From Octopus vulgaris (taxonomy: Eukaryota), in NCBI GenBank assembly GCA_951406725.2, contig OX597822.1:23374001-23438000 (forward strand): a stretch of 64,000 nt of DNA. Reading direction: 5' to 3'. A program made the position numbers and the translations under genes. Each line of letters starts with the position of its first letter. Position 1 is the first letter of the stretch. The notes beneath the pieces are model-generated. The model did not search any database, had not been told where the DNA came from, and saw only the letters and a program-made list of their open reading frames with translations. Positions 8,074-13,400 of the stretch are shown here, piece by piece.

Positions 8074-8129
8074 TATGTAGTCTTCCGACAGTCAACACTA
8101 AATTTATATACATGCGTACAGCAGTATAC

Positions 8130-8531
8130 TCTTTTTACTCTCTTTTACTTGTTTCAGTCATTTGACTGCGGCCATGCTGGAGCACCGCCTTCAGTCGAGC
8201 AAATCGACCCCAGGACTTATTCTTTGTAAGCTTAGTACTTATTCTATTGGTCTTTTTTGCCGAACCGCTAAGTTACGGGGACATAAACAGCATCGGTTGT
8301 CAAGCGATTTTGGGGTACAAACACAGACACACAAACATATACACACACATATATATATGAATATATACGATGGGCTTCTTTCAGTTTCTGTCTACCAAAT
8401 CCACTCACAAGGCATTGGTCGGCCCAAGGTTTTAGTAGAAGACACTTGCCCAAGGTGCCACGCAGTGGGAATGAACCCGGAACCATGTGGCTGGTAAACA
8501 AGCTACTTATTACACAGCCACTCCTACGCCT
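8130..8531 (-). mobile_element. CORE-type tRNA SINE (family A), full length
   Basis: Head ggcgtaggagtggctgtg, CORE-like ggcaccttgggcaagtg, internal TA/TG tract, gtaaaagag tail. Confidence 0.85.
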
Positions 8532-8845
8532 ATGAATATATTTATATAACTTCCAGAACTGATTATTATGAAAATTTAAAATCAGAATTTTTTTCAATTT
8601 TTCTTTTCATTTTATTCAATAGGAAGAAGTCTTAAATGATCGAAAGCGATACATGTCTTCTTTCAGTTTTCCTTTATAATGTTCTCCAAACATTTTCTAC
8701 TTTTCCTTATTTTTTCAATCATAAAAGGAAGTGCGGTGAAGCAGAGATATAGTTCCGGTGATTCGAACCCGCAAACTGGTTTCGATTTTTGCAATGAAGC
8801 TTTCAACAAAAGATGATCGTCATACAATCTCCTACCTGTCTAATT

Positions 8846-8983
8846 ACTGGGTTGTCCGGAAAGTTCGTGCCGATTTTTAAAGGAAAGAAAACGGTCAATA
8901 AATACTTGCCATTACATTTTTAATCAACCAGATATGAACCATTTTGTCTCCATCTTTCCTTTAACTTGAAAAACCCTCTTCCC
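8846..8983 (+). mobile_element. Mariner-like terminal fragment
   Basis: tactgggttgtccggaaagttcgtgccgatttt resembles mariner TIRs; no partner TIR seen. Confidence 0.45.
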
Positions 8984-9765
8984 AGATGCCAAGAACCCTC
9001 CTAAGTATCCTTAGATGCCAAGAACCCTCCTAAGTATTCTTAGATGCCAAGAACCCTCCTAAGTATCCTTAGATGCCAAGAACCCTCTTAAGTATCCTTA
9101 GATGCCAAGAACCCTCCTAAGTATTCTTAGATGCCAAGAACCCTCCTAAGTATCCTTAGATGCCAAGAACCCTCCTAAGTATCCTTAGATGCCAAGAACC
9201 CTCCTAAGTATCCTTAGATGCCAAGAACCCTCCTAAGTATCCTTAGATGCCAAGAACCCTCCTAAGTATTCTTAGATGCCAAGAACCCTCCTAAGTATCC
9301 TTAGATGCCAAGAACCCTCCTAAGTATCCTTAGATGCCAAGAACCCTCCTAAGTATTCTTAGATGCCAAGAACCCTCCTAAGTATCCTTAGATGCCAAGA
9401 ACCCTCCTAAGTATTCTTAGATGCCAAGAACCCTCCTAAGTATTCTTAGATGCCAAGAACCCTCCTAAGTATCCTTAGATGCCAAGAACCCTCCTAAGTA
9501 TCCTTAGATGCCAAGAACCCTCCTAAGTATTCTTAGATGCCAAGAACCCTCCTAAGTATTCTTAGATGCCAAGAACCCTCCTAAGTATTCTTAGATGCCA
9601 AGAACCCTCCTAAGTATCCTTAGATGCCAAGAACCCTCTTAAGTATCCTTAGATGCCAAGAACCCTCCTAAGTATTCTTAGATGCCAAGAACCCTCCTAA
9701 GTATCCTTAGATGCCAAGAACCCTCTTAAGTATCCTTAGATGCCAAGAACCCTCCTAAGTATCCT
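8984..9765 (-). repeat. Minisatellite, 27 x 29 bp (AGATGCCAAGAACCCTCCTAAGTATYCTT)
   Basis: Units start at 8984 and every 29 bp to 9738; only two variable positions; minus strand reads RILRRVLGI*. Confidence 0.97.
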
Positions 9766-10227
9766 AGCTGTCCCCAATAACATTGTTTTCTGGAGCTGTA
9801 CTAAAGTATTTCCTATATCCACCTGTTCAAATCTTTAGTTCCTAATACACCTGTAGCTACTGGGATACATTTTACTCGCACTTTCCATAGTCTCTGTAAT
9901 TCAATGTCTAGGTCTTGGTACTTTGCTATTTTTTATATACCCCTCGTACTGATTTTTTCATCATTTGGGACTGTAAAGTCAATTATCTGGCACTTTCTAT
10001 TCTCTTTGTTTACTACTGCTAAATCAGGCCTCCTATTTTCTATTACTCTGTCAGTTTGTATGTGAAAGTCCCACATCTTATACTTCTTACTTTCTAGTAC
10101 TTTACTAGGTTCATATTCATACCATTTATCAGTATGGTCAAATCCTAGTTTTCTACATAACTCCCAGTGGAGTACTCTCTCTAGATTGTCATGTCTTTTT
10201 ATATTCTTTCTGTGCCATCATGCTACA
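9738..10227 (-). pseudogene. 5'-truncated R4/Dong-like non-LTR retrotransposon, endonuclease domain, disrupted
   Basis: Minus-strand peptides KEYKKRHD..LHWELC, WDFHIQTDRVIENRRPDL..IIDFTVP, KIAKYQDL, LLGTARILRRVLGI*. Confidence 0.88.
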
Positions 10228-10254
10228 TTATTATTATTATTATTATTATTGTTA

Positions 10255-10352
<98 letters not shown>

Positions 10353-10412
10353 GTTGTTGTTGTTGTTGTTGTTGTTATTATTATTACTATTATTATTATT
10401 ATTATTATTATT
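10228..10412. repeat. (ATT)n/(GTT)n microsatellite between the two LINEs
   Basis: Direct reading. Confidence 0.95.
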
Positions 10413-11263
10413 CAGTAGTTTTATTTTTATAGCGTGCTTTCACTTCACTACCGAGCGCAGCTCTGTGTGCCTTGGGTATGTGCTGTGATTTGTTGTGATG
10501 CTCTGATGGTTATTGTATGGAAAGTGTTCTGCGTAGGATGTGTGCAGTACCTAGTAGTGCAATTTTCTGTATGTTATATGTGTTTGTAAGTCCTGGTGTT
10601 TTTGTTATGTATTTGTCTGAATATTTTTTTACCATGCCTAATGCACCTACTATGATAGGGATTGTTTCTGTTTTTAGATTCCACATTCTGGTTACCTCTA
10701 TTTCCAGGTCTTTGTATTTTGAAAGTTTCTCCATTTCTTTTAGAGACACGTTGTCATCTGCCGGTATTGATACATCAATCAGAAAGCATTTTTTTTCTTC
10801 ATGATCTCTGACAACTATATCTAGTTTGTTGGCCTTAATTTCTTTATCTGTGTGTATCGGCATATCCCAGAGTATGGTTGCTTTCTCGTTTCCTGTGACC
10901 TTTTCTGGTGTGTGCCTATACCATCTTTTTTCTGTTGTTATTCCATAATGTTGGCATAGCTTCCAGTGTATGTAGGTTCCAACTCTGTCATGTCTGTGAA
11001 TATATTCCTTCTTAGCCAGGACTGGGCAGTCAGAGATAATATGATTTATTGTTTCTTGTCCATTCCACATATTCTGCAGTTACTTGTTATATTTCTTTTC
11101 ATTACATCTTTTTGGTAATTTCTGGTGGGGAGGCTTTGGTTTTGTGCTACAATTAAAAATCCCTCTGTCTCTGCTTTGAGTCCTGAGCTTCTCAACCATT
11201 GCTAGGATTTTTCTTTGTCTATTTCTTTTGCATTTAGTTTAGTGCAGTATTTACCATGAAGGG

Positions 11264-11265
<2 letters not shown>
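10413..11265 (-). mobile_element. 5'-truncated R4/Dong-like non-LTR retrotransposon with CCHC finger, restriction-like endonuclease and 3' UTR
   Basis: ORF 10510-11070: ETINHIISDC, RHD, WDMPIHTD, (P>L)DIVV..IDVSIP, EKLSKYKDL, LGTAHILRR; (TAA)n on both sides. Confidence 0.9.
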
Positions 11266-11301
<36 letters not shown>

Positions 11302-11764: not shown

Positions 11765-11812
<48 letters not shown>

Positions 11813-13400
11813 AAAAGGAAGTGCGGTAGAGGTGATGTATATTTCCGGTGATACAAATCCACAGCATATTTTTCGATTTTATTGAGGCTTTTCTTAAAAA
11901 CTTATTGTCAGCCATAACTTCTTGATACTTGTTTGAAACTATTTTGAATGATGGATTTATTAACTTTGGTTTCTATTAGATAAGGATAAACTATTTATTA
12001 CTGTTACACAATTTTCTACAACCATGTTCACATTCCCTGACTACCATTGGGATCGATCAGGTACCGGACAAGAATTCTGGATTATTTTTCCATTTTTTAA
12101 ACTTAATTTTTGAGAGTGGTCGGGTTCATGTTTAATATTCTCGTTTGTGAGAGCAGTCGAGTTATTTCAGATATTTTCATTTCAAAAATTTTTCTGGCTA
12201 TTCGTTGAGAGGACGTTGGTGTTACCTTGGTGGAGGTTTGCGCTCTCTGAGTGCTCTTGTTTAATTTAATTTGTTTGTTTAGTTTTATTTCAAGATCTCT
12301 TGCCAATAGAGGAAGAGTCGGTTCCTAACCGAGATCCAAGGTTCCTTCATTGGAATTTCAACATCAACAACAGGGTATTATGTATGTATGTATGTATGTA
12401 TGTATGTATGTATGTATGTATGTATGTATGTATGTATGTATGTATGTATGTATGTATATGCGCAAATTCGTATGTCTTGTTTTATGTATATATTCACATG
12501 CATATATTGCATATCTAGACATGCTCATATATATTTAAATGATAAACTTCTGGAAAATTTTAGATTTTTACAGTTCCAGTGATGTATGTATGTATGTATG
12601 TATTTATTTATTTATGTATGTATTTGAATGTATGTATATATCTGTCTGTTTGTCAGTATGTATGTCTGTATTTCAATGTATGTATGTATGTGTGTTTTGT
12701 CCATAAGTGTTGGGAAACTATACGACCGAACCATCGACTAAGACACTTTACTGCGGTACCCCAGCATGGCCGCAATCCATTGAGTAAAAACGAGCAATAG
12801 ATTAAAATACTAAGCAAGCAACTGTAAAAATTTTGAAAACCTATAAATAAATTATAATCTTACAAAATAAATCGTACACCTGCGCTAATCAATTTATTTT
12901 TGTGTAACACGGAGGAACAAATACACCTACACGTAAATACATGCAAATGAAAAGGAAACCAAAAGAATCTCAGGTGGTCCGCTCCTCGTCTTTATTAGTA
13001 CTCCTAACCCACACGTAATACAACAATATCATTAATATAAAAAGAAGTGAATATAAAAAAATTGAGTCATTAGGCATTCACATATAAACTTATAGCGATA
13101 AGCAGAAGAATTCAAGGAGTGGAGCTATGCGTACACCCACAGCCAACCGATGTCATTGTCCGTTTGTCTTCGTCCATTCATAATTTTTACGAATGAAACC
13201 ATCCCTGTACTTTTTTGTTGACAAGCCTTAATCTTTATGAAGGCGCGTGGCTTAGTGGTTAAGGTATTCGGCTCAAGATCGTAAGGTCGTGAGTTCGATT
13301 CCTGGCAGCGCGTTGTATCTTTCAGCAAGACACTTTAATTCACTCTGCTGGCAAAAGTAAGATGTACCTGTATTTCATAGAGATAACCTTGTCATATTCA

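Follow-up and report, generated by a model that had tools for sequence, protein, structure and literature searches.

The stretch of Octopus vulgaris DNA analysed here (64,000 nucleotides, hereafter the window) contains a minisatellite of 27 units of 29 bp that was built from the last nine codons of a LINE open reading frame (ORF). We consider it very likely that this array goes back to one microhomology-seeded duplication, which was expanded by host DNA replication or recombination long after the LINE had been inserted. The features of the locus are collected in Table 1.

Table 1. Features of the array and its surroundings (positions in the window).
Feature	Position	Strand	Remark
Twelve nucleotides just past the array	8969..8980	-	11/12 match to a variant-C unit
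27 x 29-bp minisatellite	8984..9765	-	Unit-by-unit reading and Tandem Repeats Finder; the native end of the ORF forms unit 1 (9737-9765)
Stop codon TAA of the array-bearing LINE ORF	9736..9738	-	
Upstream microhomology arm AGGATACTT	9757..9765	-	ORF side
Array-bearing LINE stub	9737..10226	-	5'-truncated, decayed; covers the C-terminal endonuclease region of a Dong/R4-like LINE whose family is high-copy
(TAA)n/(CAA)n microsatellite	10227..10412	-	Forms the tail of the upstream LINE stub and borders the array-bearing stub on its 5' side
Second, different LINE stub of the same kind	10412..11264	-	5'-truncated; own 3' UTR of about 98 nt and TAA tail intact
(TAA)n run	11265..11301	-	5' junction of the second stub

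Tandem Repeats Finder reports a period of 29, 27.0 copies, 97% matches, 0% indels and a score of 1473, and a reading unit by unit agrees with it, as had been claimed in the preliminary description for a 27-copy 29-mer array made from a LINE ORF end. The span given there, 8984..9770, is right at its start and too long at its end, where it takes in 5 nt of the ORF. On the minus strand, the unit consists of nine codons (RILRRVLGI) and the letters TA, and the first base (A) of the following unit completes the stop codon. The units had been said to repeat in phase; they do so in register, but not in reading frame, as nine codons plus TA make up each of them. The final unit is 1 nt short. Three unit types occur among the 27: fourteen are identical to unit 1 (A), ten carry G>A at position 3 (B), and three carry G>A at position 11 (C), the last being numbers 4, 23 and 26 when counted on the plus strand. 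Read from the LINE side, their order is ACABCABBBAABBABAABAAAABCABA. These two recurrent sites are the only variable ones, just as first described, and no unit has a private change. Units a few tens of bases long, arranged head to tail and with variants scattered among them, are what defines a minisatellite, and within the window this is the only repeat with a period of at least 15 and at least 4 copies outside microsatellite mosaics.

No further order was detected within the array. A block ABCAB (units 3-7 and 22-26) resembles a higher-order duplication and is not significant by permutation (p = 0.18), and the B units show no significant clustering (p = 0.79). DNA folding of four units gave z -2.68 with an empty centroid for the minus strand and z -1.14 for the plus strand, so no stable structure is claimed. 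A search of metagenome and viral contigs for a 26-nt junction pattern gave 0 exact matches. A CRISPR array, which had already been discounted, does not fit 0% indels and the lack of unique spacers. A coding function was rejected because a 29-nt unit shifts the frame from copy to copy and all frames run into a stop. The array is probably neutral, and we propose no function for it.

The LINE stub that bears the array is 490 nt long and is disrupted, as previously noted, by two nonsense codons (9933-9935 and 9813-9815) and two frame breaks (near 9805 and 10199). Its 5' junction, at 10226/10227, directly abuts a TAA run, as expected of an insertion into (TAA)n; the 3' side of the insertion is missing. 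The 3' UTR motif of the family is absent from the right flank of the array, and there is no TAA run below 10228; the array thus stands in place of the UTR and the (TAA)n tail, in line with the preliminary description.

The affiliation of the element was approached through protein relatives. Neither LINE stub had a significant Pfam match, and a word-indexed protein search with the 91-aa stub confirmed 0 of 9 candidates, while phmmer with the same query returned 3779 proteins at E <= 0.001. In all five long phmmer matches that were scanned (P0127, P0198, P0241, P0251 and P0200; 958-1304 aa), RVT_1 lies in the middle of the protein and the match to the stub near its C-terminus, and the best PDB matches of P0127 are R2 proteins. 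The RH, WD, PD and D positions align, and we take this motif to be the one labelled REL. A reverse transcriptase (RT) followed by a C-terminal REL endonuclease is therefore seen in relatives of the element, to which the observation applies. The label is that of PMC7998251; in the available parts of that paper and of PMC3812793 and PMC3774820, Dong/R4 elements are described as combining RT with a REL endonuclease, as having (TAA)n for their target, and as occurring in insects, molluscs and cnidarians. [quoted passage not shown] An excerpt of PMC13282606 reports that Dong-R4 is abundant in Octopus vulgaris, with 51 families and 92.7 Mb. As the relatives carry RVT_1, R2 proteins are nearest to P0127 in PDB, and published elements combine RT and REL in (TAA)n, we call the element Dong/R4-like, a label based on sequence likeness and not on an RT tree.

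The single-copy state of the ORF end can be read from other members of the family. Contigs from 4 of 24 listed public runs (X1, X4, X7 and X12, with four organism codes) were aligned to 9737-10226 at 80% likeness, giving 4460, 4734, 3201 and 4776 contigs, respectively. All 24 runs are contig sets; none of RNA was listed, which has no bearing on expression. With thousands of contigs per run, the family has a high copy number in each of the four aligned runs. Loose ends at 9740 that continue into an ordinary 3' UTR are seen for 24 contigs in X1 (agreement 0.68) and for 27 in X12 (0.74); among the loose-end rows listed, none at 9740 is from X4 or X7, with 1575 further rows outside the listing. 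The letters compared are those of loose ends and not of contigs that extend past the ends of the aligned stretch. In these loose ends, the family 3' UTR begins TAA-GGTTACTT, and the LINE strand shows the stop codon, then GGTTACTTG, then a short stem-loop. The UTR start proposed earlier, TAAGGATAC, is off by one base, the contigs reading TAAGGTTAC. That other copies end in an ordinary UTR points to the array as a one-off minisatellite, with regard to the copies listed and not to a genome-wide count.

Comparison of this UTR with the ORF end suggests how the first duplication may have been seeded. The UTR arm AGGTTACTT of the family matches the ORF arm AGGATACTT at 8 of 9 letters and lies exactly 29 nt, or one period, downstream, so that the ancestral single-copy state has microhomology arms one period apart. 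The offset is fixed by the array and the UTR letters were obtained independently from contigs; an 8/9 match at that fixed offset is expected by chance with P about 1.6e-4. Such arms are not rare, as an 8/9 match is found somewhere across the stop in 11 of 69 relatives. On this sequence comparison, the microhomology likely seeded the first duplication, and the suggestion of the preliminary description that microhomology was involved gains an 8/9-nt match at exactly the period. Short flanking repeats of 5-10 bp (the Haber-Louis geometry) are described as starting minisatellites, also inside transposons, in the available text of PMC6947457, and microhomology-mediated tandem duplication has been shown at scale according to the part of PMC13167724 that was available. 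All 26 internal junctions of the array carry the letter A of the ORF arm and never the letter T of the UTR arm. Slippage over the full arm would give A in antisense-strand synthesis and T in sense-strand synthesis. The junction letter is nevertheless weak evidence on the maker of the seed, because the antisense direction is that of RT and also that of one replication strand, and an exchange inside AGG gives A too.

The age of the array was compared with that of the LINE body. Of 296 differences between the body and the contigs, 40 were listed; the 30 at which each of the four runs has the other letter in its majority were kept, and 10 were dropped. The body thus differs from the family majority at no fewer than 30 of 433 nt (a minimum of 6.9%), a majority letter possibly including subfamily differences. 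Assuming one frame between breaks, the 30 changes are 16 nonsynonymous, 2 nonsense and 12 synonymous. If the 783-nt array were as old as the insertion, about 54 private changes would be expected in it, and 0 are observed; with no more than a quarter or a tenth of the divergence placed after the insertion, the probability of 0 is 1.3e-6 or 0.004, respectively. A decayed body next to an array without private changes means that the array was expanded or homogenised at the DNA level after insertion. The common ancestor of the 27 units is much younger than the insertion, so that DNA-level turnover is needed and a single RT event is ruled out as their source. The DNA-level, VNTR-type step favoured in the preliminary description is thereby upheld, and a 3' tail made by RT slippage and as old as its insertion was not found here.

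A sequence of events can be put together as follows. A 5'-truncated stub with a normal UTR and tail would have been inserted behind a (TAA)n run by target-primed reverse transcription. A slip or an unequal exchange between the 8/9 arms, 29 nt apart across the stop, would then have produced the first doublet, and repeated slippage, unequal exchange or conversion may have led from there to 27 copies, two point mutations spreading among the units along the way. A deletion presumably removed the UTR and the TAA tail, both of which are absent, and the flank opens with an 11/12 unit match. This match starts 3 nt beyond the array (null 4/3000; 31/5000 by local alignment), and its 12 nt are either what is left of a decayed unit at the edge or the point where the deletion of the UTR and the tail was joined. 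Upstream of unit 1, no degenerate unit was found (1995/5000 null).

Relatives from other animals provide a base rate for the ORF end of the clade. An alignment of the upstream stub and 14 matches led to 398 metagenome loci, of which the best 80 were used, together with 2 loci from a genome collection. Seventy-three of these 82 extend to the C-terminus, and in 72 a stop is found nearby (45 clusters at 80%). A TAA run lies within 150 nt of the stop in 49 of the 72 and within 600 nt in 50, some contigs ending too early. A tandem repeat (period of at least 10) over the ORF end was seen in 0 of 72 relatives (45 clusters). These are families of other animals at 40-60% identity, mostly on single contigs, so the count is a base rate for the clade and not for the array-bearing family. 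Two distant relatives, L072 (2047-2076) and L075 (2041-2070), have the TAAGG start in common, and a hairpin is predicted in both directly after the stop codon (z -2.2 and -1.4; L075 is the closest relative, at 61% aa). This is a candidate for an element recognised by RT; L032 (z -0.07) and L080 (z -0.42) have it in a weak form at best. In another relative, L026, an 18-nt-period repeat of telomere-like CCTAAC units stands about 70-145 nt after the stop at 846, after the UTR and in place of the TAA tail. Two short contigs of a cyanobacterial metagenome-assembled genome (L081 and L082) encode the same animal-type LINE region, which is likely host DNA contamination.

One alternative differs from the preferred explanation only in the maker of the seed: while the LINE was being inserted, its RT may have slipped back at the stop-codon hairpin, so that the initial two or few copies were its product, host DNA processes doing the rest. 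We regard this as unlikely, though worth keeping because of ORF-end duplications of 38-42 nt in four contigs. Among 12 of 59 duplication rows listed, four are go-back joints from 9757, to 9737, 9737, 9740 and 9743, with 21-24 letters of the UTR hairpin between and periods of 42, 42, 42 and 38 nt (depths 60-80). They come from three runs (two in X1, one each in X4 and X12), have one junction in common and differ in several letters; they could represent a 42-nt subfamily, slips that happened repeatedly at the base of the hairpin, or units from a single array of greater age. An RT-made seed would also agree with the junction letter A, if slippage was on the antisense strand, and with the position of the downstream arm, which overlaps the 5' arm of the post-stop hairpin that is also predicted in L072 and L075. 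For UnaL2 and RTE, the available parts of PMC3747384 and PMC2887409 describe template slippage at the 3' repeats of LINEs. However, replication slippage on one strand predicts the same junction, the hairpin is weak in L032 and L080, and none of the 72 relatives has such a duplication, although 8/9 microhomology across the stop occurs in 11 of 69. The same 38-42-nt duplications keep alive a broader and still less probable reading, in which the stop-codon hairpin would be an RT slippage hot spot, 29- and 42-nt ORF-end doublets would seed minisatellites genome-wide, and the family would act as a minisatellite factory.

Much less probable is a subfamily in which the 29-mer array travels with the element as a VNTR tail, in the manner of SVA or Hebe, the present array being one of many insertions. 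Hebe does have a 72-bp 3' UTR repeat in 1-4 copies (in the excerpt of PMC2861651), and 42-nt duplications with a common junction could mark a subfamily. Against this, the loose ends show the UTR, the array is younger than the body, no tail follows the array, and no go-back joint of period 29 occurs among the best-supported rows (196 joints and 47 insert rows lie outside these).

We give an equally small chance to the copy number or variant order being partly an assembly artefact of a shorter array. The 782 bp exceed short reads, and no 29-nt joint appeared among the 15 of 211 joints listed in the contig comparison, which included one unit only; the array thus has no independent confirmation from reads. 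Nevertheless, the three unit types stand in a non-periodic order, unique flanks lie on both sides, and the window contains no N. Telomerase-like copying, raised in the preliminary description, in which RT would have gone 27 times over an RNA that ended at the stop codon, all during insertion and followed by no turnover, can hardly be upheld: the array lies at the 3' end of the element, replaces the UTR and tail and lacks indels, but it has 0 private changes where about 54 are expected from body decay and is far younger than the body, its two substitutions are found in 10 and 3 units, respectively, the family copies listed have a normal UTR, and 0 of 72 relatives have a repeat over the ORF end.

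A microhomology-seeded origin followed by host-driven expansion places the array near several known systems. Its closest counterpart is Haber-Louis or microhomology-mediated tandem duplication, in which, as far as the excerpts of PMC13167724 and PMC6947457 go, a single-copy segment between short direct repeats likewise duplicates and expands. In contrast to the excerpted part of PMC13167724, the single-copy state is read here from thousands of paralogous contigs and not from an allele, and the distal arm has been lost; even 3x alleles are rare there, whereas the present array has 27 copies with two interspersed variants. Minisatellites derived from Alu, B1, MaLR and Ogre (in the available text of PMC6947457) are also retrotransposon pieces expanded in place, but the unit here is the last nine codons of a Dong/R4-like ORF. 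With Dong/R4 non-LTR retrotransposons, as described in the accessible portions of PMC7998251 and PMC3812793, the element shares the C-terminal endonuclease of RT-bearing ORFs and the (TAA)n 5' junction; unlike Dong/R4 relatives with a short UTR and a TAA tail, the array-bearing copy is a stub with neither.

Tandem repeats at the 3' end of LINE insertions are also known from the TGTAA units of UnaL2 and the microsatellites of RTE. There, according to the parts of PMC3747384 and PMC2887409 at hand, short units form the normal terminus of the family, whereas the present 29-nt coding unit was not seen as a terminus, the listed loose ends reading into the UTR and 0 of 72 relatives showing a repeat, and is younger than the insertion. 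Hebe (jockey clade) resembles the array in having a variable tandem repeat near the LINE 3' end, and Hebe copies have microhomology-linked deletions; its 72-bp repeat differs in being family-wide and in the UTR, with 1-4 copies (PMC2861651, excerpt). A literature search, with most subscription journals and repeat-library sequences outside its scope, found no minisatellite from a Dong/R4 ORF end.

Minisatellites from transposons are already well known, and the array is a further, microhomology-seeded example, an ordinary birth of the textbook type. What is unusual is that the LINE family still shows the single-copy state from which it arose, and that the decay of the insertion itself provides a measure of how young the array is. 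Use as a VNTR marker is conceivable. Should RT prove to make the 29- and 42-nt duplications recurrently, target-primed reverse transcription would be linked directly to minisatellite origin.

The surroundings of the array are themselves rich in repeats. Between 10227 and 11301 on the minus strand, two Dong-like families are stacked in one TAA microsatellite, the second stub sitting between two TAA runs; the two stubs lie head to tail and share 37% aa identity, with no blastn match. An 85-nt stretch at 8722-8803 and 11812-11891 (74% identity, same orientation) flanks this two-LINE cluster on both sides. It is probably another repeat fragment and not a target-site duplication, because it is too long and too far out. 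At 8127-8548 lies an interspersed repeat of about 400 nt, probably a SINE, with at least 8 other long copies in the window (70-88% identity).
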